Positions 30,415 through 64,000 are shown, counted from the stretch's first letter. The stretch is 64,000 bases of DNA from an uncultured Mycoplasmatota bacterium (GCA_900554315.1 USGP01000001.1:36902-100901), one strand, 5' to 3'. Program-made: numbers and translations. Notes: generated by a model not told the origin, from the letters alone.

Positions 30415-32823
30415 ATGGTAAAAAAAATATTGTTATATGGAATTGGATCATTACAAAATCGTGGCTGCGAAGCCTTAGTAAATTCAACTATTGCACAAAT
30501 TAGTCCAAATATAGAGATTGTAGCTGCTACTTTTGATTATGAGCATGATAAAAATATGTATAAAGATAGAATCAATCGTTTCGTAAATCATCATAAACAA
30601 AACCCAGAAGAATTTACCGAAGAAGAACAGAAAGAATTTGAACATATTCAAAATATTCCTTTTGATTATTATAATTATGAATGCTTTTATGAGAGAGACG
30701 TAATTAAAGAAATGAAAGATGCAGATATATGCATACACATAGGCGGTGATAATTATTGCTATGGTGTAAATGAATGGATTTATACTATAAATCGAAAAGC
30801 AAAAGAATTAAACAAAAAAACTGTATTATGGGGTGCATCATTATATGATGAAATAAATGATTTAGAGTTGATAAACGATTTACAAAAATATGATTTATTA
30901 ATGATTAGAGAAAAAATCAGTTATAATGCTATTAAAAAATATATTGATAAAGATAGAATAATGCTTGTTCCAGACCCAGCATTTTCTTTAAAGCCAAAAA
31001 AGGTAACTTTATCAAAATGGTACAAAGGAAGAGACGTTATTGGTTTAAATTTAAGCCCATTAACAGTCAAAACCAAAGAAAATGAAGAAGCAGTAACAAG
31101 GTTTATTGATTATATTTTAAAAAATACAAAATATTCTATTACACTGTTACCCCATGTTGCAGTAGAAGAAGTAAGTGACTTAAGTGTTTTAAAAAAAATA
31201 AAAGAAAAATACAAGGACGAGGATAGAATCTTTTTAGACGACGGAGAGTATAATTGTCAAGAAATAAAATATATTATTTCAAAATGTGCCTTAGTAGTAG
31301 CAGCAAGAACCCATGCTTCCATAGCAGCATATTCTACAGAAATTCCGACGTTAGTTATTGGATATAGTGTAAAGTCACGTGGTATTGCAGAAGATTTATT
31401 TGGAAATTATCAAGACTATGTCTTGCCAACAGAAGAATTAGTAGGTGACCAATTAATTAATAAGTTTAAATATATCAATAAAAACAAGCAAAAAATAAAA
31501 GAAATCCTAAAAGAAAAAATGAAAATAGTAAGAGAAGAAGCAAAAAATCTATATAGCAACATGATAGAAAGATTAGATTATTTAGATAAAAAATATGTTT
31601 GTTCTAAAAATAAATGTACAGGATGCAGTGCTTGTCTAAATATCTGCCCGGTTAATGCTATAAAATTTGTAGAAAATAAAGAAGGCTTTTTATATCCGGA
31701 GATAGATTTAGATAAATGTATTCATTGTAATAAATGTAGAAACACATGTATAGCACTTCATCCTAAACTAACTTCTTCAAAAGCAGAAGAATGTTATGCT
31801 GTCAAAGCAATATCTGATGAAGTAAGAAAAACAAGTTCATCTGGTGGAGTATTTCATTATTTAGCAATGAAAATATTAGAAGATAATGGTGTTGTATATG
31901 GTGCAGAGCTAAAGAACTTCAAAGTAGAACATATTAGAATTACAGATGAAAAAGATTTGATAAAAATAAAAGGATCAAAATATGCTCAAAGTAACTTAAA
32001 AAATATATTTCAACAAGTACAAAAGGATTTAAAAGATAATAAAAAAGTACTATTTTCAGGAACTCCTTGTCAAATACAAGGCCTAAAAAAATATTTACTT
32101 CATGATTATGAAAAATTGTATACAGTTAGTGTAATTTGCCATGGAGTAATGAGCAATAAAGTATTGCAAAAAAGAATAAAAGAATTTGAACAACAATATG
32201 AAACAAAAATTACTGATATAAAATTTAGATCTAAAATAAATGGTTGGGATAAAGCCTCTATAGAATATATTTCACAAAGAATTAATAAAGCATATCCCTT
32301 TGCCAATGATACATTAATGAATCTATATAATAGCAATTTTATTTTAAGAGAAAGTTGTTATAATTGTTCAGCAAAAGGTTTGGAAAATAATATTGCTGAT
32401 ATTATACTAGGAGATTACTGGGGTATATACCATGTACATCGTGAAATGCTTGATAATCTTGGTGTATCTGCCGTAATTATAAAAACAAAAAAAGGACAAC
32501 AATTATATAATAAGATAAGGGAAAAAATTATAGCAACAGAAACAGATATTCAAAATATAATAAAATATAATCCGGCGATAATAGAGTCTGTTGAACGACC
32601 ATTAGAAAGAAGCAGAATTTTTAATGATATAGAAAACAATGAATTATCAATCGTATCTCAATTATATAATTCTAAAGTAGAATCAAATAAAGAAATTGAG
32701 ATAACTAATTTGTTAAATCAAAATGAAGAATTATTAAATAAATTAAATAAAGTTTATAATAGTAAAAGGTTCAAAATGATAGACAAATTAGGAAATATAT
32801 GGAATAAAATTCTACATAAATAA
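30415..32823 (+). CDS. fusion: polysaccharide pyruvyl transferase + 2x[4Fe-4S] ferredoxin + F420-hydrogenase/dehydrogenase beta-subunit-like (FrhB) domains
   Basis: 802 aa. N-terminal ILLYGIGSLQNRGCEALV...GGDNYCYG...LVPDPAF (PS_pyruv_trans-like). CTGCSACLNICPVNAI and CIHCNKCRNTC clusters. Then CYAVKA...SSSGGVFHYLA and GTPCQIQGL (FrhB N/C-like). Confidence 0.75.
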   Translation: MVKKILLYGIGSLQNRGCEALVNSTIAQISPNIEIVAATFDYEHDKNMYKDRINRFVNHHKQNPEEFTEEEQKEFEHIQNIPFDYYNYECFYERDVIKEMKDADICIHIGGDNYCYGVNEWIYTINRKAKELNKKTVLWGASLYDEINDLELINDLQKYDLLMIREKISYNAIKKYIDKDRIMLVPDPAFSLKPKKVTLSKWYKGRDVIGLNLSPLTVKTKENEEAVTRFIDYILKNTKYSITLLPHVAVEEVSDLSVLKKIKEKYKDEDRIFLDDGEYNCQEIKYIISKCALVVAARTHASIAAYSTEIPTLVIGYSVKSRGIAEDLFGNYQDYVLPTEELVGDQLINKFKYINKNKQKIKEILKEKMKIVREEAKNLYSNMIERLDYLDKKYVCSKNKCTGCSACLNICPVNAIKFVENKEGFLYPEIDLDKCIHCNKCRNTCIALHPKLTSSKAEECYAVKAISDEVRKTSSSGGVFHYLAMKILEDNGVVYGAELKNFKVEHIRITDEKDLIKIKGSKYAQSNLKNIFQQVQKDLKDNKKVLFSGTPCQIQGLKKYLLHDYEKLYTVSVICHGVMSNKVLQKRIKEFEQQYETKITDIKFRSKINGWDKASIEYISQRINKAYPFANDTLMNLYNSNFILRESCYNCSAKGLENNIADIILGDYWGIYHVHREMLDNLGVSAVIIKTKKGQQLYNKIREKIIATETDIQNIIKYNPAIIESVERPLERSRIFNDIENNELSIVSQLYNSKVESNKEIEITNLLNQNEELLNKLNKVYNSKRFKMIDKLGNIWNKILHK

Positions 32824-34109: not shown

Positions 34110-36431
34110 ATGGATTATAGTAAAATTCCAGGAAGAAAAATTGAATTAATAGGTGAAATTAAAAATAATGAAAAACCAACAATAAGTATTATTACACCAT
34201 TTTATAATGGTGGAAAAACTTTACAGGAGACAGCTAACACTGTTTTTAATCAAACGTATCCATATTTTGAGTGGATTATTGTTGATGATGGATCAAAAGA
34301 TGAAGAATCATTAAAAGAGTTAGATAGAGTAGCAAAACAAGATAAAAGAATAAAGGTATTCCATAAAGAAAATGGAGGACCATCAATTGCTAGAGATTAT
34401 GGAGTAGAAAAATCTAGTGAAGAAACAAAATATATTTTCTTCTTAGATTGTGATGACCTTTTAGATAAAACAATGTTAGAAGTTCTATATTGGACATTAG
34501 AAACTCATCCAGAAGGTTCATTTGCCTATACTACTATGGTAAACTTTGGAGATAGGGAATTTTTATGGGAAAAATATCTAACCGTTGATGATGAGAAAGA
34601 AGAAAACCTTATTTGTATTAGTAGTTTAGTTAGAAAAGATGACTTCAATGAAGTTGGTGGCTTTGGAATTAAAGAAAAAGCAATGTATGAAGATTGGAAT
34701 CTTTGGTTAAAATTAATTGAAAAAGGAAAGATTCCAGTTAGGGTAAATGCACCTCTATTTTGGTATAGAACAAGTAATTCTGGTGAATTATCTAGAGCAA
34801 GAACCAATCATGAAAATGCAATGAAATATGTAAATGAAACAGCTAGTAAGATTACAAAAGATGTAGATATAATCCAATTTCCTAGAGAAGGAAAAAGATT
34901 TGATGTCGTAAAAGATCATCCAGATATGGTATTGCCAAATTATAAAAGAAAAAAGAAAATTAATATATTATTTATAGTCCCTTGGACAGTAACAGGTGGA
35001 GCTGACTTCTTTAATATAGATTTAATTAAAAGATTAGACAAAGACAAATATGATGTAACATTATTAATGACTACACCAAATGAAAATCCTATTAGACAAC
35101 AATATGAAGAAATTTGTTCAACAGTATATGATATGTCAACTTTCTTAGAGAGAAGTGACTATATTAAATTTGCAGAGTATATTATGGAATCAAGAAATAT
35201 AGATTTAGTTTTTGTAACAAATACTCCATATGGTTATTATATGGTTCCATATTTAAAGAGAAAATATCCAAAAGTTCCATTTATTGATTATATTCATTCA
35301 GTAGATTTAAGAGACCCACGCGAAAGTTTTGGTAGATGTACGATGGATGTAAATGAATATTTAACACATACATATTGCTGTAATAACTTTACAAAAAAAC
35401 AACTTATGGAAAGATATCATAAAGAAAAAATTGATACAATTTATATTGGAACAGATTCTAATAAATTTGATCCAGAAAAATATGATAAAAAAGAAATGCG
35501 TGAAAAATATCATATTCCACAAGATAAAACTGTAATTTCTTTTATTGCGAGATTATCAGATGAAAAACGCCCTGAAATGTTTGTAGAAATAGGAAAGAGA
35601 CTAGTTGCTAACAATCCAAATTTATTCTTTGTAATAGCTGGAGATGGTTTCTTAGCTAATCCAGTAAGTAGTATAATTGATGATAACTTTATTATGCTTG
35701 GAATGGTAAAAAATACAGAAGAAATTTATGCTTTAAGCGATATGACTCTAAATTGTTCTTCACTAGAAGGATTAGCTTTAACTTCATATGAATCTTTATC
35801 AATGGGGGTACCAGTAGTATCAACGGATGTTGGTGGACAAACAGAATTAATAGATGAAAAAGTAGGCGGAATTGTTCACTATAATAAGGATGCTACTCCA
35901 GAACAATATGAAGAAGAGATTAATAACTACGTAAAAGAAACAGAAAGAGTAATTGATAATTTAGATAAGATAAAGAAAAATTGTCGTCAAAGAATACTTG
36001 ATGGATTCACTCTTGATTTAATGGCCAAAAAGTTTGATAAAATTTTCACAGAAGCTATTGAGAAAGAAAATAAAAATAAAATGACGTTCCCAGTTAATGA
36101 TTATATGGAATACAATCTTCTAACAGAAAGTATTTATATTGACTATTTCTTTACTGTTAAAAATTATCTTGAATCAAAATTTGATCTTTACTATGATCCG
36201 GATAGACCTCCAAGAAAAAAAGGAAGAGTATATTATTTAAAACGCCGTTTATCAAAAGTATTAATTAGAGCACACGCTAAGCAAGAAGCATTAAAAATTT
36301 TAAATGCCTTACGTTGCTTATATAAAGTATTTTACAATTTTGCATATTTTATTAAATTTTTTATTATGTCAATACCAGCTTTCTTCGTATTATTATATAA
36401 ACTATTAATGAGAAATAGAAATAAAGGTTAA
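34110..36431 (+). CDS. bifunctional GT2 + GT4 glycosyltransferase with C-terminal membrane anchor
   Basis: ISIITPFYNGGKTLQETANTVFNQTYPYFEWIIVDDGSKDE and FLDCDD (GT2). FIARLSDEKRPEMF...IAGDG...EGLALTSYESLSMGVPVVSTDVGGQTELI (GT4). Terminal hydrophobic FIKFFIMSIPAFFVLLYKLL. Confidence 0.8.
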   Translation: MDYSKIPGRKIELIGEIKNNEKPTISIITPFYNGGKTLQETANTVFNQTYPYFEWIIVDDGSKDEESLKELDRVAKQDKRIKVFHKENGGPSIARDYGVEKSSEETKYIFFLDCDDLLDKTMLEVLYWTLETHPEGSFAYTTMVNFGDREFLWEKYLTVDDEKEENLICISSLVRKDDFNEVGGFGIKEKAMYEDWNLWLKLIEKGKIPVRVNAPLFWYRTSNSGELSRARTNHENAMKYVNETASKITKDVDIIQFPREGKRFDVVKDHPDMVLPNYKRKKKINILFIVPWTVTGGADFFNIDLIKRLDKDKYDVTLLMTTPNENPIRQQYEEICSTVYDMSTFLERSDYIKFAEYIMESRNIDLVFVTNTPYGYYMVPYLKRKYPKVPFIDYIHSVDLRDPRESFGRCTMDVNEYLTHTYCCNNFTKKQLMERYHKEKIDTIYIGTDSNKFDPEKYDKKEMREKYHIPQDKTVISFIARLSDEKRPEMFVEIGKRLVANNPNLFFVIAGDGFLANPVSSIIDDNFIMLGMVKNTEEIYALSDMTLNCSSLEGLALTSYESLSMGVPVVSTDVGGQTELIDEKVGGIVHYNKDATPEQYEEEINNYVKETERVIDNLDKIKKNCRQRILDGFTLDLMAKKFDKIFTEAIEKENKNKMTFPVNDYMEYNLLTESIYIDYFFTVKNYLESKFDLYYDPDRPPRKKGRVYYLKRRLSKVLIRAHAKQEALKILNALRCLYKVFYNFAYFIKFFIMSIPAFFVLLYKLLMRNRNKG

Positions 36432-48856: not shown

Positions 48857-48861
48857 AAGAC

Positions 48862-49326
48862 CTAATGCGTTTTACCAGCACTAGGTCTTTTTAATATCTC
48901 TTCATAAACTTCCCCTAAACTTACTTCTTCTTCTTCCTCATTAAAGTTTTTAGGATTAACTTTTAAAATATGCATCGTGTATTGAGAAGAAACAATAGAA
49001 TATAAATCAATAACAGAAGAAAGTTGTGCATCTGTTAACTGTTCCAAAGAGTTAATAAACAAATGCCCATCTAAAAACTTTCTGTCTCCAGAAGTGCATC
49101 CTTGATAAGGAAGAATTTGAAAATCATCCAACAAAATTCCACACAAGACTGCAAGATTTGTCTCTTGACGAATACCATCTGCATTCATTCCTATTTTTTG
49201 ATATTCTTCCTGTATAATTCTTTGATAAAAAGGAGCATGATTTTCTTCATCCTCTTTCATAACTGAAATTGTTCCATCTGGTCTAATAACAAGTCCAGGA
49301 GTAAAAGGATTAATTTCTTGTTTCAT
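48862..49326 (-). CDS. hypothetical protein
   Basis: 154-aa ORF, convergent with scpB. No family recognised. Confidence 0.5.
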   Translation of the reverse strand: MKQEINPFTPGLVIRPDGTISVMKEDEENHAPFYQRIIQEEYQKIGMNADGIRQETNLAVLCGILLDDFQILPYQGCTSGDRKFLDGHLFINSLEQLTDAQLSSVIDLYSIVSSQYTMHILKVNPKNFNEEEEEVSLGEVYEEILKRPSAGKTH

Positions 49327-50599: not shown

Positions 50600-51436
50600 A
50601 TGCTACTTTATAAAAATACATTTGATAATATAAAGACAGAAAATCATAACTTTCCTGTAGAAGACCAATATTATGCTACTGATACAATGGCAATTGTTGC
50701 AGATGGTATTACAAGAGATCCAGTAGGAGTTTTTGATTTATCAAGTATTAGCAACGAAGAATTTATTAAAAAATACCCACGCCCTAGTGGAGCAGAGCTA
50801 GCAGCAAAAACAATTTGTGACACGTATAAAAAATCTTCAGGCACTCCAAAAGAACGATTAATTCGATGCAATCAAGCGGTAAAAGCATTAAATGACAGAT
50901 ATATTGCCACATGTGATTATTTACAAAATGATTATTATGGAGCTGTTGCTGCTGCAGTAATCATACAAGAAAACACTCTATATTATGCCTATATCTGTGA
51001 TTGTGGGGTTATTATTTATGACAAAGAAGGAAATATAAAATTTCAAACAGAAGATGATAAAACAAAATATAGTGATTCCTATATCAACAAAATAGGCATT
51101 CCTTGGGATTTACCAGAATCAAGAGTGATTGTAAGAAGAGATTATAGAAACAATCCAGAAAACATCCAAGATGGTCATTGCGTATCTTATGGAGCCCTAA
51201 CAGGAGAAGACACCGCAATTCAGTTTATTCAAAGTGGAACACAACCATTATCCTCAGGAGACCTAGTGGTCGTATATAGTGATGGTATCAGTAACTTTCT
51301 TCATGAACCAAATTTTATTAATAAACTTTTAAATTTCAATAGCCAAGAATTAGAAGAATATATGAATACTCAAGCATCAACCGACTATAGTAAATATGGA
51401 AAAGAGAAAACTTTAGTATTACTAAAAAAAGAATAG
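50600..51436 (+). CDS. PP2C-like (PP2C_2-type) putative protein phosphatase
   Basis: 278 aa. MAIVADGITRDP, GAVAAAVII..NTLYYAYICDCG and VVVYSDGISNF resemble the PP2C-fold motif order. A candidate promoter TTGTAT-18-GATAAT lies at 50550-50579. Confidence 0.5.
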   Translation: MLLYKNTFDNIKTENHNFPVEDQYYATDTMAIVADGITRDPVGVFDLSSISNEEFIKKYPRPSGAELAAKTICDTYKKSSGTPKERLIRCNQAVKALNDRYIATCDYLQNDYYGAVAAAVIIQENTLYYAYICDCGVIIYDKEGNIKFQTEDDKTKYSDSYINKIGIPWDLPESRVIVRRDYRNNPENIQDGHCVSYGALTGEDTAIQFIQSGTQPLSSGDLVVVYSDGISNFLHEPNFINKLLNFNSQELEEYMNTQASTDYSKYGKEKTLVLLKKE

Positions 51437-51445
51437 GAAATAACA

Positions 51446-51925
51446 ATGTCAAAGATAAGCAATGTATTAACCATGATAGAATACCTAAGTACAGGAAGAA
51501 AATATACAATAAAAGAACTGTCTGAAAAGCTAGAAGTATCACCCAGAATGATTAGAGTATATAAAGATGAAATAGAAAAAGCAGGAATTTATATTGATAC
51601 CATAAAAGGGCCATATGGAGGTTATGTACTAAATCAGAATGTAAGAGTACCAAAAAGGTTTATTACTCCTAATGAAATTAATATTGAAAATAAAGAGTTT
51701 TTTAATCAAATCAACCGAGCTATCAAAGAAAAAAGAAAATGTTGGATTGAATATTATTCAAAAAATAGAAAAGGAATATCAGATAGAATTATTCATCCCT
51801 ATGATTTAATATTATTAGGAAATGAATGGGGAGTAGCAGCATATTGTGAATCTAAAGAAGAAATAAGACATTTTTATATCAACAGAATAAAACAAATAAA
51901 AATATTAGAAGAAAAATATAACTGA
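51446..51925 (+). CDS. compact HTH (HTH_11/DeoR-type) + WYL-domain transcriptional regulator
   Basis: 159 aa. ISNVLTMIEYLSTGRKYTIKELSEKLEVSPRMIRVYKDEIEKAGIYIDTIKGPYGGYVL (wHTH), then CWIEYYSKNRKGISDRIIHPYDLILLGNEWGVAAYC (WYL-like). No C-terminal extension domain. Confidence 0.65.
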   Translation: MSKISNVLTMIEYLSTGRKYTIKELSEKLEVSPRMIRVYKDEIEKAGIYIDTIKGPYGGYVLNQNVRVPKRFITPNEINIENKEFFNQINRAIKEKRKCWIEYYSKNRKGISDRIIHPYDLILLGNEWGVAAYCESKEEIRHFYINRIKQIKILEEKYN

Positions 51926-54082: not shown

Positions 54083-54154
54083 TACTTTTTTCTTGCAAAA
54101 ATAAAATGAAACTATGATATAATGAAAAAAGATAGAGTGGTAGGAAGTGTAAAT

Positions 54155-57100
54155 ATGAGAGAAGAAAGAATGACTTATATTGAAAACTATATTAATGACT
54201 TGAGTAATCAATTAGAAAAAATGGGTATAGTGGTTCCTACAGACCAATTAAATAGGCTAATAAATAGATATAAATATAGTACGAGTCCTATAAATGAAAT
54301 AATAGAGGAAATTAATCAGGTAGCAGAAGAATATGTATCCCGTATTCGTCAAATACAACAGGCAAGAGAAAAATTAAAAGATTCCCAAAATAGAAAAGAA
54401 CTATCAACTTTACCAGTTCAATATCAAGGAATTACCCTAAATCAACAAGACATTGAATTAATGAAAATTGTAGATGCGAAATCCTTGGAACAACTTCGTC
54501 AAGTAGTAAAACAAATTCCAATATTAAAAGGAAAAGACATAGATTTCTCTCAAGACCTAGAATCTGCAATCGAAAGTGCGTTTCATACTTACCAAGATAG
54601 TCTTATTTCGATAGAAGATACATTAGAAGATCCTATGTTAGTATTAAGAAAGAAATTAGAACTTTTCCTTTCTTCAGAGGATGTATCACCAGAAATAAAA
54701 GAAAAAGTAAGACCAATAGTAGATACATCAGAATCAAGAGAAGAGGTCGCAAAAAAACTAGAACAAGTATTAACAGAAGAAGAACAACATGAAGCCTATG
54801 GAATCATCAATAACTTGACAGTAGTAGAAAAAGAAGGAATAAAGCAAACAAAAATAGAAGCAGTTAGGAATTTATTAGAACAAGTAAGAAGTAGAAATTC
54901 CATTACATTAGATGAAGTAGGAAAATATGGTAATATCGTTCTACCAGATGGCAGTTTTAATTTTACCAAGTTACAAGAATGTCTTGATTTTGCTAAACAA
55001 GAAGGAAAAAAAGTAAGAATTAATACGTTGATATTTTATATGGATTGTCCTAAAGAATTATATGACTTAGAAAAAACAGAAGAAAATAAAGAACTAGTAA
55101 AACAAAAATTAATGGATTATGTAGATGCTACTACGAAATTTATAAGAGATAACGGATATAGTGAGACTGTTAGAAGTATCGATGTCATGAATGAAGTACT
55201 AAATAGATTTCCTATGACCGGAAACCAACCATATCAATATCGAGGAGATATTACTTCAAGCTCTTTGGATGACAATATAATGGCAGGTTGGCTAAAACAT
55301 TTAACAATAGAAGATTTATGCGATGTATTAACAGTAGCGAGAAAAAATCTACCAAGTACAGATTTCATGTATAATGAGGATAACTTAGTAGACCCTAATA
55401 AACTACCACTAACTTTTGAAATGCTAAATAGAATTCAACAATATGAAAAAACTCACAATATAAGATTGATAGATAGTATAGGAACACAAATGCATATCAA
55501 CAGCAATGTAAAAAATCAAGACGTAAAAAATATGTTTCATCAATTACAAAAGTTACGATTACCAATTGAAATTACAGAATTTGATTTAAAAATGGTAGAT
55601 GGAAAGTCTGGAGATTTACAAACCGAAATTGCAAGACAACTAAAAATAAATGACCTATACAGTATCTTTCAAGAAGAACCCAATCTAAGAGGCTTTACCA
55701 TCTGGAGTAAAACAGATAGCCAAAGTTTTTTAGTAGCATTAGAAAATAGAGAAAGAAAAAAACATAAACAACCATTCATAAAAAGTCAAAATGCCGGGTA
55801 TTTTACCGAGAAAATGACAGAAAAAAGTGAAGCTTTAGGTAGAGAGTTAACACCACAAAAATATAACTATCATACACATACCAATCGTTGTGGACACGCT
55901 AGTATCGCAACAGATAAAGAATATGTAGCTCTAGCCAAAGAAAGTGGTATCCAAACATTAGGGTTTTCCGACCATATTCCAAATCCTAGTATAGAATTTC
56001 CACAAGATAAAAATAGAATGACTCCTGAAAGTTTTGGAGAATATCTGTTTTCAATCAGAAGTCTTGCTAAAGAAAATCCAGATATGACCATTCTCTGTGG
56101 ATTAGAAGCCGAATATGATTCAAGAAAAATTACGTATTTAAATGAATTAAAAAATAAATTAGATTATCTAATTTTAGGACAACATTTTGTAATAGAAAAT
56201 GCTAAAAAGGTAAAAAAAGATTCTCCAGATTATCCGTTAAAATACGCAAAAAGTGTCTGTGAAGCAATGGATACAGGATTATTTGACATTGTAGCTCATC
56301 CTGATATTTTTATGGAAACTAGAGATTTAATTTCTGAACAAGAACGACCTCTGTTTGATAAAAATGCTCAAATAGCTAGTAAAATGATATGTGAAAAATC
56401 CAAAGACTTAGGAATACCCCTAGAAATCAACTTAAAAAATTTAGAAGGAAATAAAACTTCTATTCCATATCCTAATCCTATGTTTTGGAGTGAAGCCGCT
56501 AAAGTACAAGCTCCTGTCTTATATGGAGCAGACGCTCACACTCCAGCAAGCTTATTGAATATGACAGAAAACAGAAATAAGGTATCTTCTATCATACCAA
56601 CATCCAAACTAAACTTTGTAAAGAGTGACTATAACCCTGTAAAAGATAGGCCAAAAGAGTTAATAGAAAGACGAAAGAATGTAGAAAAGGAAAGCAAAAC
56701 ATATGAAACCCAGCTAGTTACTTACTTAATTTCATCAGCAACAGAAGAAAATAAAAAAGAATCAATAGAGTCACAAATCCACAGTGTGCTTCAAAAAGGT
56801 GCTCAAAAGACAGTGGAGGATGGTCAAAAGAAGCTAGCAAAAAGAAAAGAACAAATTATGCAGATTGGTAATAATCCTAACTTATCAAATAGAGAAAAAG
56901 CATTTTTACTAACAAGAACAAAAAATACAATCAAATCCATTAGAGAGACCATGAAGAAAAGAGAAAATGTATTATCCTCTGCTATGGAAGATGTAAGAAC
57001 AGCAACCACATTAGGATGTACAACAAAAAAAGAATACATAAAAACAGTAGGAGAGTTGACAGAACAACGAACAAATAAGAAAAAAGGAAATACAGAAGAA

Positions 57101-57277
57101 CTAGCTTCTATGTTTCATCAGCCTAAGCAACAAGAAGCACCAAAAGCAATAGAAAAACCAAAGACATATTCTAAAAGAGAAAATAAAAATACTACAGGAA
57201 TGATTACTCCAGCAGGAATATTATTGTTAACTGGCTTTCTTCTATTGACAATGGCTATTCTTATGAATTTAGTATAA
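54155..57277 (+). CDS. multidomain protein: helical N-terminal region + GH10-like (beta/alpha)8 domain + PHP (HisJ-type) phosphoesterase domain + coiled-coil + C-terminal TM anchor
   Basis: GH10-like order FAKQEGKKVRINTL, IDVMNEVLN, DSIGTQMHI, PIEITEFDL, FTIWSKTDSQSF. PHP motifs YHTHTNRCGHAS, GFSDHIP, GLEAEY, VAHPD, GADAHTP. Terminal ITPAGILLLTGFLLLTMAILMNLV. ATG 54122 overlaps a TGATATAAT box, so 54155 is preferred. Confidence 0.65.
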   Translation: MREERMTYIENYINDLSNQLEKMGIVVPTDQLNRLINRYKYSTSPINEIIEEINQVAEEYVSRIRQIQQAREKLKDSQNRKELSTLPVQYQGITLNQQDIELMKIVDAKSLEQLRQVVKQIPILKGKDIDFSQDLESAIESAFHTYQDSLISIEDTLEDPMLVLRKKLELFLSSEDVSPEIKEKVRPIVDTSESREEVAKKLEQVLTEEEQHEAYGIINNLTVVEKEGIKQTKIEAVRNLLEQVRSRNSITLDEVGKYGNIVLPDGSFNFTKLQECLDFAKQEGKKVRINTLIFYMDCPKELYDLEKTEENKELVKQKLMDYVDATTKFIRDNGYSETVRSIDVMNEVLNRFPMTGNQPYQYRGDITSSSLDDNIMAGWLKHLTIEDLCDVLTVARKNLPSTDFMYNEDNLVDPNKLPLTFEMLNRIQQYEKTHNIRLIDSIGTQMHINSNVKNQDVKNMFHQLQKLRLPIEITEFDLKMVDGKSGDLQTEIARQLKINDLYSIFQEEPNLRGFTIWSKTDSQSFLVALENRERKKHKQPFIKSQNAGYFTEKMTEKSEALGRELTPQKYNYHTHTNRCGHASIATDKEYVALAKESGIQTLGFSDHIPNPSIEFPQDKNRMTPESFGEYLFSIRSLAKENPDMTILCGLEAEYDSRKITYLNELKNKLDYLILGQHFVIENAKKVKKDSPDYPLKYAKSVCEAMDTGLFDIVAHPDIFMETRDLISEQERPLFDKNAQIASKMICEKSKDLGIPLEINLKNLEGNKTSIPYPNPMFWSEAAKVQAPVLYGADAHTPASLLNMTENRNKVSSIIPTSKLNFVKSDYNPVKDRPKELIERRKNVEKESKTYETQLVTYLISSATEENKKESIESQIHSVLQKGAQKTVEDGQKKLAKRKEQIMQIGNNPNLSNREKAFLLTRTKNTIKSIRETMKKRENVLSSAMEDVRTATTLGCTTKKEYIKTVGELTEQRTNKKKGNTEELASMFHQPKQQEAPKAIEKPKTYSKRENKNTTGMITPAGILLLTGFLLLTMAILMNLV

Positions 57278-57344
57278 TAAAGAAAAAAATGTAAAAACTA
57301 TAAACAAAATATACGTAAAGAAATGTAAACTGTAAAAATACCTC

Positions 57345-57373
57345 TTGTCAATAAAAAAAAAACACGATAAAAT
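57345..57373 (+). promoter_or_regulatory. sigma-A-type promoter candidate (TTGTCA-17-TAAAAT)
   Basis: TTGTCA at 57345-57350, a 17-nt spacer, TAAAAT at 57368-57373. About 70 nt upstream of the first gene of the SipW locus. Confidence 0.5.
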
Positions 57374-57441
57374 AAATTTGACATAGTAGGAAAGGGAGCA
57401 TTGTGATGTACTAGTAAATAAGAAAACAAGTGGTGATTGAA

Positions 57442-58140
57442 ATGGCAATAAATACAGTAAATGTAGAAGCGGAAAAGGTATATAAGAAGAAACTTCGATC
57501 CCGTATAATTAAAATAGCCTTTCTACTATTGATCATTATTATATCCATCGTTTATTTGTTTCTCTATATTGTCTACGATGGAGGAAGATTTACTGTTAGC
57601 TTAGATAGAAATATGTCGAATAGAAAGAATGTATTTTTATCAGAGGATGGTAAATTAAAATCCAAAACTAGACAATTATCAGCAGATACAATTGACTATA
57701 TGGATAACATTTCTATTAAATGGCTTCCTGCTGATATTGATACAGAAGCAACAGGAGCTCATAATGGAGATAACTACATTGCTTATACATTCTACGTTGT
57801 GAATGCAGGAAAAGAAAAAGTCCACTATTGGTATGAAGTGGACGTAGATGACACAATAAAAAATGTAGATGAGGCAATTAGAATAATGATTTATAGAAAT
57901 GGCAAACCTACAGTCTACGCCAAGAAAAATAAGGTGACGAAGAAAAAAGAACCTGGTACTAAAAAATTTGTTTCTAAAGATATAGCAGTGTTAGAACAAA
58001 GAAAAAATATGAAACCAGGAACCAAGGATCGATTTACAGTAGTAATCTGGATTGAAGGCGACGATCCAGAATGTAAAAATGATTTACTTGGAGGAGAAAT
58101 TAAAATGCATATGGATATTACAGAAGAACATATTGCATAA
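57442..58140 (+). CDS. signal-anchored protein with TasA/camelysin-like C-terminal motif (possible fibre accessory/anchor protein)
   Basis: ATG 57442 follows GGTGAT. Basic N-terminus plus a TM (IIKIAFLLLIIIISIVYLFLYIV), then GGRFTVSLD. The C-terminal VVIWIEGDDPECKNDLLGGEIKMHMDI is paralogous to the end of the next protein. Confidence 0.55.
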   Translation: MAINTVNVEAEKVYKKKLRSRIIKIAFLLLIIIISIVYLFLYIVYDGGRFTVSLDRNMSNRKNVFLSEDGKLKSKTRQLSADTIDYMDNISIKWLPADIDTEATGAHNGDNYIAYTFYVVNAGKEKVHYWYEVDVDDTIKNVDEAIRIMIYRNGKPTVYAKKNKVTKKKEPGTKKFVSKDIAVLEQRKNMKPGTKDRFTVVIWIEGDDPECKNDLLGGEIKMHMDITEEHIA

Positions 58141-58160
58141 AAAGAATAAGGAGTGAAAAA

Positions 58161-59201
58161 ATGAAAAGTCAAGAACAAAACAAAAAGAAAAAAAGAAAAG
58201 TATTATTATCATTACTTATGATTCTATTTGTAGGAGTAATCTTAACTGCATCAACTTATACATGGTTCACTGCTAACAAAACTGTAACAGTTGATTCATT
58301 AGATGTTAATGTATCTACTTCTACAGGTCTACAAATCTCAACAGATGCAATTAACTGGAAAACAATCGTTACAAGAGATGATATTGTAAATGCCAAAACT
58401 ACTGGATATGGTGCAGCTGTTAACCAAGTACCATCAGGACAAACTAACCCTGTTTCAACTGCTGGAGAAGTTGATGGTGGAACTGGTTATATCAACATGT
58501 ATCGTGGATTATTATCAGATGAGGGTGGTTTAGGAAGCTTAAAATTAACTGCTGCTAAATCAACAGAAGAAAATGGTACTGAAGGTGACTTTATTGCATT
58601 TGATTTATTCTTCAATACTAATGAAGCACAAGATATTTATTTAACTTCAGGTTCTAACGTTATCGGTGGAAAATCTGATGGTGGTGGAACTGATACATCA
58701 ATTCAAAATGCTGCACGTGTTGCTTTCTTACCACAGGGTAATAACCCAGCAGCAAGTAACTCAAGTGCTAGTCAAGCTTTAAAAGCAACAGATGCAACTG
58801 GATTGAAGATTTGGGAGCCAAATGCTGATGCACATACTGCAAACGGTGTTAACAACGCTCAATCAAATTATGGAAAAGGTGGGTTACAAGAAGGAACTGG
58901 AAATGCTCCGGTCTCATATTACGGAGTAAAAGCTGCGATTGCAAGTGGACAAGCACAAGATATTAATTCAACTGATGGTACTTATTTTGCTGAAGTCAAT
59001 GCAAGCCAAGGTTTATTCACGACTAACCAATCTGGTATTCCTACGTCAGCTTATCAGCAAATTTTACACTTAGACAAAGGTGTAACAAAAGTAAGAATTT
59101 ATATGTGGGTTGAAGGACAAGATGTTGACTGTGAAGATTATGCTTCAGGTGGAGATTTAACTTTCAACTTACAATTTAGTTCATTATCAGCTCAAGCATA
59201 A
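58161..59201 (+). CDS. secreted TasA/camelysin-like putative fibre subunit with SipW-type signal peptide
   Basis: 346 aa. KKKKRK plus a hydrophobic span, then TYTWFTANKTVTVDSLDVNV (compare TasA GGGTWAAFNDIK...GTLDLS, recalled from memory). Gly/Ala/Thr/Ser/Asn-rich. Ends IYMWVEGQDVDCEDYASGGDLTFNLQFSSLSAQA. Visibly higher GC than its neighbours. Confidence 0.6.
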   Translation: MKSQEQNKKKKRKVLLSLLMILFVGVILTASTYTWFTANKTVTVDSLDVNVSTSTGLQISTDAINWKTIVTRDDIVNAKTTGYGAAVNQVPSGQTNPVSTAGEVDGGTGYINMYRGLLSDEGGLGSLKLTAAKSTEENGTEGDFIAFDLFFNTNEAQDIYLTSGSNVIGGKSDGGGTDTSIQNAARVAFLPQGNNPAASNSSASQALKATDATGLKIWEPNADAHTANGVNNAQSNYGKGGLQEGTGNAPVSYYGVKAAIASGQAQDINSTDGTYFAEVNASQGLFTTNQSGIPTSAYQQILHLDKGVTKVRIYMWVEGQDVDCEDYASGGDLTFNLQFSSLSAQA

Positions 59202-59233
59202 AAATGATCAGTAAGTTGGTCATGTAAATAAAG

Positions 59234-59258
59234 AAAGGCCTTCAATGAAGGCCTTTTT
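59234..59258 (+). terminator. strong intrinsic terminator
   Basis: GC-rich stem AAAGGCCTTC-AAT-GAAGGCCTTT followed by a T-run. Confidence 0.85.
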
Positions 59259-59275
59259 GTATAATAGGAGGGTTT

Positions 59276-59377
59276 ATGGAACAAGTAGAAGAATTATTAA
59301 AATTATATCAAAAAATAGAAAAGCATATTCGTTATTTAGAGGATAATATGATAAGTGAGGAACAAGAAAATGAATAA
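59276..59377 (+). CDS. 33-codon micro-ORF (MEQVEELLKLYQKIEKHIRYLEDNMISEEQENE)
   Basis: Not in the ORF track (<60 aa). AGGAGGG lies 4 nt upstream of ATG 59276. Its stop overlaps the ATG 59370 of the next gene by 8 nt. Confidence 0.45.
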   Translation: MEQVEELLKLYQKIEKHIRYLEDNMISEEQENE

Positions 59378-61025
59378 AGATCAACAAGAAAAAATATTAC
59401 AAGAAATTGAAGTAAATGAAAATCATATAGCCAATTATCCTTTAGAAACTGAAACTGGTACTAAAAAAATGAAAGAAAAATTTCATGAAAAAGCTGTTTC
59501 AGAGAGAAATGCTTATATAACAAAAGAACTAAGTAAGTTTAAAGAATATCAAAGAACAGTATATATAGAGCTAGATAAGTATGTAAAATCAATCTTTCCA
59601 CAAGATAAAGAAGAAGTCTATCAAACTTCAGATGAAAATTTAAATAAATTAGTTAAAGTTTTGCCATTTGCTGATGACAAAGTATCATTAGAAATTAAAT
59701 TAGGATTTGCACATATTTTTTATCAATTATCAGAAGACACAGAATCATCTCTTAATACCATAAATGAAGGTATTGAAGATTTTATAAAAATCATGAAAGA
59801 TGCTAAGATTGAATTGACAGAGGTGGATTTTAATTATAGTCCATTTGTAAATGACTATATGAAGAAATTTTTAGAAAATATTAATGATCAAAATTTTGAA
59901 GATATTATGCAAGAAACGTTTAAAAGCATTTACTGGGAATGTCCAGAATTAATTATGCACATCAAACGTAATTTATTGATGCTTGTAAAAAAATATCATC
60001 AAAAATTAAAAGAATATTGTGAGCAAATGGTAGCTAAAAAACTAGAAGAACAAGGAGTTACAAAAGAAAATGCAGTAACAACTTATCAACAAAAAGCAAT
60101 AGAATTAGAAAACGAAGAAGATAAAGATGAATTTAGAAATCTTCAAAAATTCTTAGGAAAAAGTAGAAACATAGATGATTATACAGAAGGGGCTCCACTT
60201 AGAAGTAAAAGTTTTAATCAGCTAGTAATCAAAGAAACTTATGGTGAATTGAAAGAAGAAGAAAAGAAAGATTTTGATGAAGAAAGCATTGCCCTACATA
60301 GACATTTAGTAGTCTTAAAAGAGTATTATAATTATGAAAGTATTATTAAAGACTTAGTAAGTCGTTATAAGAAAAAAGATGAATCTAAGACAAAATATGA
60401 AGCTAAACAAAAAGAGATAGAAGCAGCAGAAAAGATAAGAGAAAAATTATATAAAGATTACGAAAGAGCTTGTGGAATTGGTTTCTTGGCAAGAAAAAAT
60501 GACACTAAGATTGCTGAAATCAAAGTGAAAATGAAAGAAGAAATTAATAAATTATCTAATTTATACCAAGAGTTAGAAGAGTTAGAAATAGACGTAAATA
60601 TTGGAAAATATTTAACAGATGGAAGTACTGTATTTGATGTATTAGTAACAAGCTTAAGTTCTTATAACTATATTGAAAAAACATTAGTAGAAAAGTTCCA
60701 AGATGTTGATGTGGATTTTAATTTAGCAAACTATGTAGAAAGATATGTTAGATTTATTTATAATCCTAATGCCGATTTTCTACATAAAATAACAGCCCTA
60801 CTAGATTATGATATTGCTGAAGTGATTTCAGAAAAATATGCTTTATTAGGAATAAACATAGCCAAAGAAGAAATAAGCCAAGACAGTATCGATAGTGCAA
60901 TATCTTCTGTCGGAATCGTTGCTTTAATTAACAACATTAAAAGATCAAATATGACATTAGAAGAAATGAAACTTATATGTGATATTGATAAAATAGATTA
61001 TCATCTAGAAGAAGAAGTATTATAA
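59370..61025 (+). CDS. hypothetical cytoplasmic Lys/Glu-rich protein (coiled-coil segments)
   Basis: The track ORF starts at GTG 59355. ATG 59370 is preceded by AGGA. 551 aa, with no signal peptide or TM. No family recognised. Confidence 0.6.
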   Translation: MNKDQQEKILQEIEVNENHIANYPLETETGTKKMKEKFHEKAVSERNAYITKELSKFKEYQRTVYIELDKYVKSIFPQDKEEVYQTSDENLNKLVKVLPFADDKVSLEIKLGFAHIFYQLSEDTESSLNTINEGIEDFIKIMKDAKIELTEVDFNYSPFVNDYMKKFLENINDQNFEDIMQETFKSIYWECPELIMHIKRNLLMLVKKYHQKLKEYCEQMVAKKLEEQGVTKENAVTTYQQKAIELENEEDKDEFRNLQKFLGKSRNIDDYTEGAPLRSKSFNQLVIKETYGELKEEEKKDFDEESIALHRHLVVLKEYYNYESIIKDLVSRYKKKDESKTKYEAKQKEIEAAEKIREKLYKDYERACGIGFLARKNDTKIAEIKVKMKEEINKLSNLYQELEELEIDVNIGKYLTDGSTVFDVLVTSLSSYNYIEKTLVEKFQDVDVDFNLANYVERYVRFIYNPNADFLHKITALLDYDIAEVISEKYALLGINIAKEEISQDSIDSAISSVGIVALINNIKRSNMTLEEMKLICDIDKIDYHLEEEVL

Positions 61026-61116
61026 AACTATTTATGAAATTTTTTCAAAGAATAGTTTTTTTTTCTGTAATATGATATAATAAATTGTAAAAGAATAAAG
61101 ATGGCGTGGTGAAAAG

Positions 61117-62373
61117 ATGAGTACAGCAAAAAAAATAGTAAAATCAATTGGATATTTATTCGTCGGTATGCTAGTAGCGTTATGTATTTATACATTTATC
61201 ATGACGGACGTATTAAAAAGAGATTATGCCAATGTATTTGGCTATACATACTTTGTAGTAGCCACTGGATCAATGTCTGGAACCATTGAAGTAAATGATG
61301 TAGTAATTGTAAAGATTGGAGAAGAAGCCAATATTAATGATATTATTACTTATCAGACAGACAATGGAGAATTTATTACTCATAGAGTAATTAAAAAGAT
61401 TGGCAATCAAATTATTACTCAAGGAGATGTAAATAATACAGAAGATGATCCAATTACTAAAGATCAAATTGTAGGTACTGTAAAAATGGTGATTTCTCCA
61501 AGCTTTGTATTAAAGTTAATTGCTGTTTTACTAATTGTGTTTATTTTATTAGCATTCTTAAACTTTGATAAAATCTTTAAACGCTTTATTTTTGCAGATG
61601 TGAAAGAACAAAAGAAAAAAACACAAGGAACTGTTCCAGAAGAACTATTCACAACAACACCAGCAAAGAAAGAAGAAAAATCAACTGGAAATACAGTAAA
61701 TATACCAATTAATGAAGTATTAAAGATTCAAAAAGATCAACAAGAAGCAGAGGATGAAGATGAAATTGAGGTATTAGAAGTAGAAGATATTATTGATATT
61801 GATGATAATAATATTGTTAGAAAAGAAAAAAATAGTGCCAAAGAAAAGCAAAGAGAACTTTTAGAACAGATTGTAAATCTATTACGAATTAAAAATGATA
61901 CTTTAACCATTACAAAAATGAACAAAAAATGGTTAACAAAATATCAATACGTTTATAAATTAGCTCAAATACTAACAGTAGGAGATACCAAAGAATTAGA
62001 AGAAACAATTATGCATCCAACATTTAAAGAAATATATGATTATGACTTAGACAAAGCAGGACTATATGAAAATTTAAGAAATAAAATTTATGAAATGCCA
62101 ATTTATGTAGTGCTTAGAATATTGACTTTCGCAATTATATATAATGATGATACATTCTTTGATGGAGTATATAAAATTCTAAAATACAAAGTACAAATAG
62201 ATCAAGAAAACCATTTCAAAACGATTAAGAAGAATGATGGTTATGCAAAAAAACAATTAAAATCATTAATTACATTTATGCAAAAGATTTCAATTAAATA
62301 TGACAATAAAAAAGTATTCGAATTAGACAGAATAGAGCGTTATGTAAAATTAAAAAATTATGTAAATCATTAA
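61117..62373 (+). CDS. sipW: SipW-like (ER/archaeal-type, S26B) signal peptidase I with ~270-aa C-terminal extension
   Basis: N-terminal TM. VVATGSMSGTIEVNDVVIV (catalytic Ser), FITHRVIKK (His), TQGDVNNTEDDP. A second TM (LIAVLLIVFILLAFL), then an acidic linker and an uncharacterised domain of about 190 aa. Confidence 0.8.
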   Translation: MSTAKKIVKSIGYLFVGMLVALCIYTFIMTDVLKRDYANVFGYTYFVVATGSMSGTIEVNDVVIVKIGEEANINDIITYQTDNGEFITHRVIKKIGNQIITQGDVNNTEDDPITKDQIVGTVKMVISPSFVLKLIAVLLIVFILLAFLNFDKIFKRFIFADVKEQKKKTQGTVPEELFTTTPAKKEEKSTGNTVNIPINEVLKIQKDQQEAEDEDEIEVLEVEDIIDIDDNNIVRKEKNSAKEKQRELLEQIVNLLRIKNDTLTITKMNKKWLTKYQYVYKLAQILTVGDTKELEETIMHPTFKEIYDYDLDKAGLYENLRNKIYEMPIYVVLRILTFAIIYNDDTFFDGVYKILKYKVQIDQENHFKTIKKNDGYAKKQLKSLITFMQKISIKYDNKKVFELDRIERYVKLKNYVNH

Positions 62374-62389
62374 AAAGGAGGGACTTGCG

Positions 62390-64000
62390 GTGAGAAAACA
62401 AGAAGTACGAAATAAAGCAATCTTAATAACCTTTTGCACTTTTCTTGTCTTAATTGCAGCTTTTAGTGTAATTAATTTGTTCACCGCAAAAACTACTTAT
62501 GGTAATATTGAACAGGTCTGGGATGGAGTAGAAGTAGCTACTTCTTTTTCTGCTGGTAATGGAACAGAAGAAAATCCCTATCAAATTACAAAAGGAAGCG
62601 AACTAGCTTATCTAAGGCAAATTGTAAATGAAAATTTATTACCAGACTTAGAAAATAAATATTTTGTTTTAAGCAATGATATTGATTTAGGAGGACATTC
62701 TTGGACCGGTATTGGAACGATGATTGGAGAAGAAGAAAGAGCCTTCTCTGGACATTTTGATGGTGCAGGCTACACGGTTAAAAATTTTAAAATAGATCAA
62801 CCTACTATTATAGATAATACTGATTATTATGGTTTATTTATAAATGTTAATAATGCAGAAATTAAAAACTTAAATATTAGTCAAGCATCTCTAACAACTC
62901 AAAATACAGCTAATCAAACAATAGCAGGTATCATAACTGCCAAAGTAGAAGGAACAACTTCTATTAGTAACATTGCTGTATATGATACAGAAATGGACTT
63001 AACTAATACACTAGGAACAGCAAATAATACCATAGGCGGTCTAATTGCAACAACTAATGAAGAAACTACTCTTCAAAATATTTATAACCAAATAACAATA
63101 ACAGACGTAAATGGAAACAGTTTTGGGAATACGATAGGAGTATTAAATGGTGCAGCGAAAAACATCGTAACGCAAATATCATATACCAATTTAGTATCTA
63201 CATATATACAAGAAGTAAAAGAGACAGGTGAAAAATCAAAATTAGAAAATGTTTATAAACTTGAAAATAATAATAACACATTAACAGTAACTTCTCCTGA
63301 AAATACTACTTTAGAGCAAGTATTAGATAGTTTAAATAAAGAAATTGCAGAAGAATATATTTGGACAGTAGATTCTATAAATTTAAAAATAATAAAAAGG
63401 GCAGATCAACCACAAGTCCAAAATGATATTCAAGCCCCAACAAATTTCAACTTTGGTAAAAGTGCAGCTATTCCGCTTCATGATACAGGAATAGATGGGG
63501 AAACTGCTTATATTAACGATTTAGAAAGTGACTATAATTATTACCTAGGATTAAATTATACAGAGTCAACGGATAGACAACTTCCAAGTGGAAACAATCA
63601 AAATATTTATAATGACAGTAATTTAGTAAAAGTATATATAAAATACAGCGGTGCTAATATTTCAGACGAGTCTGAAAAAGGGTATATCAGTTTAGAAGAA
63701 CAACAAAGTGCACTTGTATATTATAAATACTATCCAGTAAGCAATAATCAAGTAACGATAGAGTTAATTGATAATCCATTTGCCGACAGACCAAATGATA
63801 AAGCATTTAATGGATGGATTACAGATTACAATGGAGCAACGATAAGTTTTGATAAAGATACATATACTAGAACTGTAACCATTCCTGTTACTTATACAAA
63901 TGGAATACCAGATATGATTAATATCACATTTAATGCATCATGGATTAACGCATCAACAGCAGAAATAACAAGCGATAATAATAGTACTTGGAGTAATGCT
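62390..64000 (+). CDS. large surface protein, GLUG-motif / parallel beta-helix adhesin-like, 5' part (continues beyond window)
   Basis: Not in the track because no stop occurs in the window. AAAGGAGGGA is followed by GTG 62390, and the frame stays open for 537 codons to nt 64000. Signal anchor ILITFCTFLVLIAAFSVINLFTAKTT. GNGTEENPYQITKGSELAYL, FSGHFDGAGYTVKNFKI, YGLFINV...IKNLNI, IAGIITA, IGGLIAT. Confidence 0.7.
   Translation, partial: MRKQEVRNKAILITFCTFLVLIAAFSVINLFTAKTTYGNIEQVWDGVEVATSFSAGNGTEENPYQITKGSELAYLRQIVNENLLPDLENKYFVLSNDIDLGGHSWTGIGTMIGEEERAFSGHFDGAGYTVKNFKIDQPTIIDNTDYYGLFINVNNAEIKNLNISQASLTTQNTANQTIAGIITAKVEGTTSISNIAVYDTEMDLTNTLGTANNTIGGLIATTNEETTLQNIYNQITITDVNGNSFGNTIGVLNGAAKNIVTQISYTNLVSTYIQEVKETGEKSKLENVYKLENNNNTLTVTSPENTTLEQVLDSLNKEIAEEYIWTVDSINLKIIKRADQPQVQNDIQAPTNFNFGKSAAIPLHDTGIDGETAYINDLESDYNYYLGLNYTESTDRQLPSGNNQNIYNDSNLVKVYIKYSGANISDESEKGYISLEEQQSALVYYKYYPVSNNQVTIELIDNPFADRPNDKAFNGWITDYNGATISFDKDTYTRTVTIPVTYTNGIPDMINITFNASWINASTAEITSDNNSTWSNA

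Follow-up and report, generated by a model that had tools for sequence, protein, structure and literature searches.

A SipW-linked surface locus of uncultured gut Bacilli, a candidate fibre or matrix system with a putative cytoplasmic module

In the tapA-sipW-tasA locus of Bacillus subtilis and the sipW-tasA-calY loci of the B. cereus group, a dedicated signal peptidase of the endoplasmic reticulum (ER)/archaeal type, SipW, is encoded beside its exported substrates. The substrates have signal peptides ending in T-[YW]-A-x-F, the gene of the major subunit follows that of a minor or anchor protein, and the systems are independent of sortase. A second, non-peptidase role has been reported for B. 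subtilis SipW (Terra et al. 2012, as cited in PMC4551309). TasA-superfamily loci hold a subunit and a dedicated type I signal peptidase (SPase I), often together with an anchor and an adhesin at the tip (bioRxiv 10.64898/2026.01.04.697558; PMC11821415). Their archaeal representatives, namely Tafi (TafA/C/E/F with TafD), AbpX, AbpA and the Saci_0406 thread, combine a major subunit, SPase I, an anchor and a tip protein or adhesin, and their peptidases carry atypical extra domains or transmembrane (TM) helices. In the sipW-bsaA locus of the Bacillota anaerobe Clostridium perfringens, the product is a SipW-dependent extracellular matrix protein polymer (PMC7395162; PMC11580942), in which intermolecular isopeptide bonds are formed and secretion is associated with type IV pili (PMC11580942). 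Here, a SipW-linked locus was analysed at positions 57,345 to 64,000 of a 64,000-nucleotide stretch (the window) from an uncultured Mycoplasmatota bacterium (GCA_900554315.1 USGP01000001.1:36902-100901). By its predicted proteins it resembles the Bacillus loci in the locus features named above. With the archaeal loci it would share the set of parts, and it shares a peptidase with an extra domain; with sipW-bsaA it would share a SipW-dependent matrix polymer.

The locus was read as a system that depends on SipW, builds a fibre or matrix at the cell surface and includes a cytoplasmic module, and the chance that this reading is right was judged to be about even. The system is built of protein families that none of the libraries used annotates, and the peptidase is its sole annotated gene; scans with Pfam, NCBIfam and PHROGs gave nothing for the 232-aa, 346-aa, 33-aa, 551-aa and giant proteins described below. 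A SipW/ER-type peptidase with intact catalytic residues, the 232-aa and 346-aa proteins with their N-terminal signal anchors and a surface protein of ~2,700 amino acids (aa) were always linked. An earlier note on this DNA, made from the sequence alone, had proposed an extended SipW/TasA-type fibre-plus-adhesin module. Its observation was largely real and its interpretation partly supported: the SipW-centred extended module stood, and the labels "TasA/camelysin" and "GLUG" fell. The looser idea of a dedicated SipW, its cognate structural proteins for export and added cytoplasmic parts was the best reading of the results. The six open reading frames (ORFs) that the note had listed were all found, each on the plus strand. 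The features of the locus are as follows.

57345-57373, plus strand: sigma-70-like promoter candidate TTGTCA-17-TAAAAT upstream of the 232-aa gene (consensus scan, 10/12 match)
57442-58140, plus strand: 232-aa protein (A232; ORF call) with an N-terminal TM anchor at residues 25-43 (hydropathy)
58161-59201, plus strand: 346-aa protein (B346; ORF call), predicted to be exported and a beta-sandwich, with a basic N-terminus and a hydrophobic segment at 14-32
59234-59262, plus strand: GC-rich hairpin AAAGGCCTTC-AAT-GAAGGCCTTT (59234-59256) and T-rich tail TTGTAT, a putative intrinsic terminator or attenuator between B346 and the downstream genes
59276-59377, plus strand: 33-aa micro-protein (s33; ORF call), whose stop overlaps the start of the next gene
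59370-61025, plus strand: 551-aa Lys/Glu-rich protein (C551; ORF call), taken to be cytoplasmic
61117-62373, plus strand: long SipW-type (ER/archaeal-type, S26B) signal peptidase I of 418 aa (ORF call and matches to hidden Markov models, HMMs)
62390-64000 (window end), plus strand: 5' part of a giant surface protein, at least 536 codons, with a GTG start and Shine-Dalgarno sequence AAAGGAGGG

Neither the 346-aa nor the 232-aa protein shows detectable homology to TasA, CalY or TapA, and the gene order differs from that of the Bacillus loci. The Bacillus SipW is a protein of ~190 aa with a short tail (NF046067 model length 189), whereas the peptidase here carries a conserved extension of ~250 residues. 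Further additions to the Bacillus complement are the micro-protein, the 551-aa putatively cytoplasmic protein, the surface protein of 2,700 aa and a probable dead SipW paralogue found in relatives. The archaeal filaments differ as well, since the hosts here are bacterial gut Bacilli and the match to Saci_0406 (7pnb, E = 0.035) was non-significant. The peptidases of those archaeal loci possess extra TM helices or a domain on the outside, whereas the extra domain here is taken to be cytoplasmic, and no counterpart of C551 or s33 was found in the literature consulted on the archaeal TasA superfamily (PMC11821415; bioRxiv 10.64898/2026.01.04.697558). Unlike in sipW-bsaA, no type IV pilus genes were seen in the locus.

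The conservation of the locus was evaluated across relatives. A C551 profile was scanned against one genome per species of the Genome Taxonomy Database (GTDB), which yielded 40 loci, all in uncultured gut or rumen metagenome-assembled genomes (MAGs), and an exact-protein look-up added two, giving 42. The MAGs were mostly titled Bacilli, Mycoplasmatota, Tenericutes or "Mycoplasma sp. CAG:877", two were titled Erysipelotrichaceae, and a few had other titles (Muribaculaceae, Acidaminococcus, Clostridia, Firmicutes). Locus composition and identities were obtained by tblastn with the window proteins. The order A232-B346-(s33)-C551-SipW(N+C)-giant was found in 34/42 loci; contig ends cut off four, and the remaining four (L039-L042) were rearranged to [A232-B346-]giant-C551-like-small SipW-like-SipW-second B346 (B346'). 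In the rearranged loci the peptidases lacked the C-terminal domain, A232 and the first B346 were within reach in L039 and L041 only, and the 512-aa protein was a full-length C551 homologue (hhalign 99.9%). A chance neighbourhood was rejected on the basis of this recurrent order. Thus, the earlier proposal that the genes form a conserved functional module was upheld, and the 551-aa gene and the long SipW form, which it expected to occur together in relatives, did so in the 34 loci.

Identity to the window protein was 60-92% for A232 in main-type loci (49-54% in remote loci), 40-84% for B346 and 34-58% for the giant protein; the values for the SipW C-terminal domain and C551 were 32-89% and 29-70%, respectively. 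A232 was therefore the most conserved gene of the locus, and the ranking A232 > B346 > giant was as expected for an anchor or machine part compared with an exposed subunit or adhesin. Remote metagenomic loci, which were reached through relatives of B346, had a short SipW of 222-241 aa with an acidic tail, together with A232 and one or two B346 paralogues, and one of them carried a giant protein of 3144 aa. C551, s33 and the SipW C-terminal domain were seen in the loci of gut Bacilli only, and all three were missing near two remote core loci. Since the remote loci retain the short SipW, A232 and B346, the exported core is broadly conserved; it consists of SipW and the 232-aa and 346-aa proteins, often with the giant protein.

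The peptidase of the window matched the NCBIfam SipW model NF046067 with E = 4.5e-11 and 42.7 bits, the equivalog cut-off being 190, and had no match to TIGR02228, the archaeal/ER-type model. NF046067 matched 16/16 orthologues and TIGR02228 matched 8/16 (best E = 5e-18), and the family profile matched human SEC11A and SEC11C among solved structures. Ser52 (GSM), His89 (THR), Asp104, Asn106/107 and Asp110 were invariant in the 16 orthologues. The catalytic residues were placed in the SipW arrangement and flanked by N-terminal and C-terminal TM helices. These results bore out the S26B SipW-type assignment of the earlier note and, judged by sequence, mark the enzyme as a diverged member of the ER/archaeal (SipW) type and not as a SipW equivalog.

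Hydropathy analysis of the peptidase gave TM1 at 11-29, TM2 at 130-148 and a marginal hydrophobic stretch at 324-342. TM2 is followed by an acidic linker with the conserved motif sGxTVxIP[IL]xE[IV] and by a C-terminal domain of ~170 residues (~245-418), which has many invariant aromatic residues and is named by no database. The ~270 extra residues that had been noted earlier thus correspond to a conserved extension of ~250 residues, which co-occurs with the C551 gene in 34 loci. The extension is probably cytoplasmic: this placement is supported by the topology that follows from TM2 and by the orthologue of L038, which ends in a CPHC...CPHC zinc ribbon and therefore argues for a cytoplasmic end. 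The second role reported for B. subtilis SipW maps to its C-terminal region.

Variant peptidases were observed in the rearranged loci. The short SipW of L040 (L040:12385-13125) and L042 (L042:12422-13159) has two tandem tail motifs, KKVLDATQ[VI]IDI[TN]EIK, and a C551-like gene co-occurs. These repeats resemble the linker motif of the long SipW, T-V-x-I-P-[IL]-x-E-[IV], and are for that reason a possible docking motif for C551. In L041 (L041:12422-13585) and L039 (L039:12401-13579), a SipW-type peptidase (TIGR02228, 75.9 bits) has a third TM segment followed by a fused beta-rich domain of ~190 residues, which would lie outside the cell. The extra domain of L041 and the small secreted proteins of L040 and L041 had no similarity to the TasA profile, and the 215-aa protein of L041 had none to the SipW profile.

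B346, the predicted major subunit, was examined for the signature of a SipW substrate. Its hydrophobic segment was the only TM-like segment in the protein, and the motif after this anchor is S-T-Y-T-W-F-T-A-N (family consensus STYAWFT). W35, F36 and N39 were invariant in the family, and T32, Y33, A34 and T37 were nearly so (≥ 90% of members for T, Y and A). The TasA signal peptide has 27 residues (PMC4551309), and the mature TasA chain in 8AUR begins at residue 28, directly after a motif of the T-Y-A-x-F type. T-Y-(A/T)-W-F at the end of the B346 signal anchor occupies the position where TasA is cut. The family comprises at least 4,089 clusters (50% identity) at E ≤ 1e-3 and 456 at E ≤ 1e-30, with ~2,000 matches in a word-indexed search, and has no Pfam or NCBIfam model. 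PDB sequence searches with B346 and its profile, as well as tblastn of B346 against plasmids, returned nothing. The AlphaFold (AF2) model was confident, with a predicted local distance difference test (pLDDT) score of 86.5 and a predicted template modelling (pTM) score of 0.83. In it, a helix at the N-terminus (2-29) is followed by a linker of low confidence (30-40) and a mainly beta remainder, a beta-sandwich, with the first strand at 44-53.

Two other kinds of surface polymer were considered. The C-terminus of B346 (...LQFSSLSAQA) has no LPXTG sorting signal, on which ground a sortase pilus was rejected, and no sortase was found among the scanned locus genes. A type IV pilin was rejected too, as its hydrophobic segment would follow a G|F cleavage site, whereas that of B346 lies before the conserved motif.

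The earlier label "TasA/camelysin-like" was to be given up if the 346-aa protein resembled the TasA/camelysin fold neither in structure nor by HMM, and on the searches run here the protein did not pass that check. PF12389 (Peptidase_M73) matched neither B346 nor A232 at E ≤ 0.1, and it matched none of 35 diverse members of the B346 family; TasA, as a positive control, was detected with the same library at E = 2.4e-37. A TasA-family profile was built from TasA (checked against 8AUR and 5OF1) and five Bacillus plasmid proteins annotated "TasA family". According to hhalign, the B346 family aligned with this six-member profile with a probability of 3.9% (E = 0.011) in the signal peptide only, where KK.L...STYAWFT fell in register on KKKLG...GGGTYAYFS; the probability against TasA alone was 0.4%. 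NCBIfam at E ≤ 0.1 gave three weak unrelated matches to B346, and TIGR04090, the BsaA model, was not among them. TIGR04088, the model of the SipW-dependent signal, matched 5/35 family members weakly (best E = 0.0023) and did not match the protein of the window. Foldseek of the B346 model against the PDB gave nothing at E ≤ 1e-3. Membership of B346 in the TasA/camelysin family was not demonstrated, and the label was dropped, for the locus cannot be filed as a TasA/camelysin system when PF12389, profile and Foldseek support are all missing.

A232, described earlier as signal-anchored, indeed has a single N-terminal TM-like segment at 25-43, and a beta-rich domain lies C-terminal to it, which would be extracellular if the N-terminus is inside. 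The family comprises at least 2,618 clusters at 90% identity and has no Pfam or NCBIfam annotation. The C-terminal motif W-x-E-G-x-D-x-x-C...G-G is common to A232 and B346 (hhalign E = 4e-5), and A232 does not have the T-Y-A-x-F motif. Against the TasA family, hhalign gave a probability of 13.5%, with the last two strands of the A232 family on the TasA C-terminus. The AF2 model of A232 was poor (pLDDT 57), and its Foldseek matches, generic jelly-roll and carbohydrate-binding module (CBM) domains, were given no weight because of this low confidence. As a separate observation, A232 and B346 each contain a single cysteine, invariant in the aligned family members, inside an invariant acidic loop (EGDDPEC in A232 and EGQDVDCE in B346, the latter of low confidence in the model, pLDDT ~62). 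This loop could be a Ca2+ site or the site of an intermolecular cross-link.

The giant protein has an N-terminal TM segment or signal at 10-28. Its full-length orthologues have 2660-2882 aa and are rich in Gly, Asn, Thr and Ser, with the conserved C-terminal motif SGTYR.VF.LYD.NQLID. No LPXTG and no C-terminal TM segment were found in the orthologues. The "GLUG/beta-helix" description (PF07581) did not hold, as Pfam matched neither the 536 residues of the window (E ≤ 0.1) nor two complete orthologues, which have 2703 and 2835 aa (E ≤ 0.01). A metagenome scan with the C-terminus of the giant protein returned a 1.4-kb contig only. Downstream of the giant gene, in relatives and beyond the end of the window, a conserved protein with two TM segments is encoded (L003:21228-21653; also from L014:21236, L015:21232, L023:21161 and L032:21059). 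It is homologous to the 181-aa and 186-aa proteins of the variant loci L040 and L041 (blastp down to 5e-20), which resemble the SipW core (hhalign E = 7e-5). These proteins have neither GSM nor a conserved His; in the main-type copies, G-D-[MYT] stands where GSM would align. The two-TM gene is thus probably a catalytically dead SipW paralogue and would be the seventh conserved component of the module.

The boundary between the exported and the downstream genes was conserved. A hairpin with a T tract after B346 lay at the same position in 24/24 related loci; its stem sequences differed among these loci and remained self-complementary, indicating compensatory change. It had been called the strongest terminator in the window, and a crude window-wide scan placed it among the top five but not first; a bidirectional terminator hairpin between convergent genes (window 48858-48888, ~-17 kcal/mol) is stronger. 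The single promoter candidate reported upstream of A232 is no more than a candidate, as 39 such 10/12 matches were found in the region and 40.6 were expected from shuffled sequence. An Rfam scan of 56800-64000 detected no cis-regulatory RNA. A second 33-codon ORF (window 59245-59346, plus strand) overlaps the hairpin and is probably not a gene; L003 and L015 have similar ORFs for the sole reason that these cover the conserved hairpin.

The 33-codon ORF after the terminator has the perfect Shine-Dalgarno sequence ascribed to it earlier (AGGAGG, 6 nt before ATG). Orthologous ORFs of 33-71 aa with the core ..ELL.LY..I.KHI.YL...I..EE.. and an acidic tail were present in all 24 loci examined, and nearly all had a Shine-Dalgarno-like purine run before the ATG and a stop at or just before the C551 start. 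This arrangement points to translational coupling of s33 to C551, and the spacing of hydrophobic and polar residues suggests an amphipathic helix followed by the acidic tail. C551 conformed to its description as a Lys/Glu-rich protein free of an export signal: Lys and Glu make up 25% of it, and hydropathy showed no TM-like segment in either C551 or s33. No Walker A motif was present, and profile searches of Pfam, NCBIfam, PHROGs and PDB sequences found nothing; 90 homologues of near-constant length were collected. As it has neither a TM segment nor a signal, C551 is taken to be cytoplasmic.

A mechanism can be proposed for the fibre or matrix reading. B346 would be exported by Sec and cut by the dedicated peptidase within T-Y-(A/T)|W-F, in analogy to the cut that follows GGGTWA in TasA. 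This would expose the conserved N-terminal strand VTVDSLDVNV, which has alternating hydrophobic residues and might polymerise by donor-strand complementation. The terminator would leave A232 and B346 far more abundant than the products downstream, as expected for a major subunit, and B346 would be this abundant, cleaved structural subunit. A232, which has no cleavage motif and for that reason should stay in the membrane, would present a similar strand (RFTVSLD) directly after its anchor and act as base or nucleator, which would make it a counterpart of TapA or TafF. The giant protein may serve as a tip or partner adhesin. Inside the cell, s33, C551 and the C-terminal domain of the peptidase would make up a complex linking processing or assembly with the cell's state, with C551 as the partner of the peptidase tail and the probable dead SipW paralogue as a possible further participant.

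Several points weigh against this reading. No significant similarity links B346 to TasA or to any solved filament subunit, be it in sequence, profile or fold, and the protein of the window has no TIGR04088 match at E ≤ 0.1. TasA was absent among the 50 Foldseek matches listed of 240 for the B346 model, and the only filament among the matches listed was Saci_0406, the subunit of the Sulfolobus thread. Polymerisation of B346 and anchoring of the structure by A232 are steps that we infer by analogy with tapA-sipW-tasA and with the archaeal TasA-superfamily loci (PMC4551309; PMC11821415; bioRxiv 10.64898/2026.01.04.697558). Where cleavage occurs, and that A232 stays uncleaved, is read from motifs, and the roles suggested for s33, C551 and the SipW C-terminal domain come from co-occurrence and predicted topology. 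The topology of that domain is not fully certain in view of the marginal segment at 324-342. Moreover, co-occurrence was measured with C551 as the sole starting point.

The alternative that competes best is a SipW-processed surface system that forms no filament, and it was considered doubtful though a real possibility. B346 would then be an abundant secreted or wall-associated beta-sandwich protein, such as a glycan-binding coat or an S-layer-like protein, A232 a membrane-bound, paralogue-like receptor and the giant protein an independent adhesin, with no strand-exchange polymer. The best Foldseek matches to the B346 model, N-terminal or accessory beta-sandwich domains of glycoside hydrolase (GH) 123 enzymes, CBM6 and cupins, lie in this direction, and such glycosidase and CBM accessory-domain matches would equally fit a non-polymeric binding protein. 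The generic jelly-roll and CBM matches of A232 agree with them, the locus has a GH10-PHP protein and a polysaccharide cluster in its vicinity, and the HMMs detect no filament family. However, the matches to B346 were all non-significant (E > 0.009, template modelling score ≤ 0.3). Furthermore, the T-Y-A-W-F motif, the dedicated SipW, the excess of B346 set by the terminator and the presence of an anchor and a giant adhesin parallel known SipW/SPase-I fibre loci (PMC11821415), and the invariant polar clusters are compatible with Ca-mediated polymerisation too.

The fibre or matrix reading can be sharpened into a more specific proposal, which is tentative and on the present evidence rather improbable as a whole: A232 and B346 would form a structurally distinct and widespread class of SipW-processed extracellular polymer, non-homologous to TasA, with thousands of sequence clusters and no solved relative, and in gut Bacilli it would be under control from inside by a previously unknown complex of the SipW domain, C551, the micro-protein and the dead SipW. 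If so, a signal peptidase would for the first time be the hub of a fibre-plus-giant-adhesin machine with inside-out regulation. The hosts are abundant, uncultured Bacilli with small genomes in human and animal guts, and to our knowledge the surface biology of such Bacilli is essentially unknown. A fibre with a giant adhesin would be a prime candidate for attachment to mucus, food particles or other cells, and the combination of a dedicated signal peptidase and a donor-strand fibre, as in Bacillus and archaea, would then also hold for a new protein family. With its conserved partners, the cytoplasmic extension of the peptidase may also offer a handle on the regulation and positioning of sortase-independent fibres.

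It is unlikely that only SipW, A232 and B346 cooperate and that s33, C551 and the SipW C-terminal domain are unrelated passengers in a neighbourhood that arose by accident and was fixed in one lineage. Such an accident is suggested by the remote loci, which hold the exported core with a short SipW and without C551, and by an accessory insert of 0.5-2.3 kb that can part C551 from SipW. However, C551 adjoins SipW in all 38 loci where the region is visible (23-70% identity), rearranged ones included, s33 is coupled to C551 in 24/24 loci, and the SipW C-terminal domain is better conserved than C551 itself. The insert is optional. It was observed at L001:11774-13368 and in the equivalent gaps of L018-L022, L024, L026 and L029, and it encodes two proteins, one helical and 109 aa long, the other of 417 aa, acidic and of low complexity in its middle part and hydrophobic in a C-terminal segment; in the window it is absent, and the gap is 91 nt.

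The neighbourhood of the locus in the window is one of cell envelope and matrix, with an exopolysaccharide cluster, a GGDEF protein, a surface glucosaminidase, a sulfatase-family (PF00884) protein, a PP2C phosphatase and WYL/HTH regulators upstream. A sporulation-associated module that builds a spore-surface structure or spore appendage instead of a vegetative biofilm fibre is highly unlikely: in L001, a sigma factor, spoVAC/AD/AEB and scpAB do lie a few genes upstream of the locus, and TasA was first described as spore-associated (CotN) (PMC4551309), but this flank is not conserved (a GH10-PHP protein is upstream in the window, L004, L005 and L008), no sporulation promoter or regulator was identified, and the window context is exopolysaccharide and cell envelope.

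The gene directly upstream of the locus (window 54122-57277, plus strand) encodes this fusion of a GH10 xylanase-like and a PHP/histidinol-phosphatase-like domain, 1051 aa long with a C-terminal TM segment, and it was found upstream in close relatives only. A PP2C phosphatase adjoins an HTH-WYL regulator at 50600-51922 (plus strand). The surface-polysaccharide cluster (window 17545-37729, plus strand) contains unusual fusions: an O-antigen-ligase-like domain with a GT4/GT1 glycosyltransferase (17545-19857), a polysaccharide pyruvyl transferase with 4Fe-4S and FrhB/FdhB-like domains (30415-32820) and a GT2+GT1 fusion (34110-36428). A GGDEF diguanylate cyclase is encoded at 932-2968 (plus strand). 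The glucosaminidase at 10470-14447 (plus strand) has 1326 aa and surface Ig-like domains, which suggests that the cell possesses a peptidoglycan wall.

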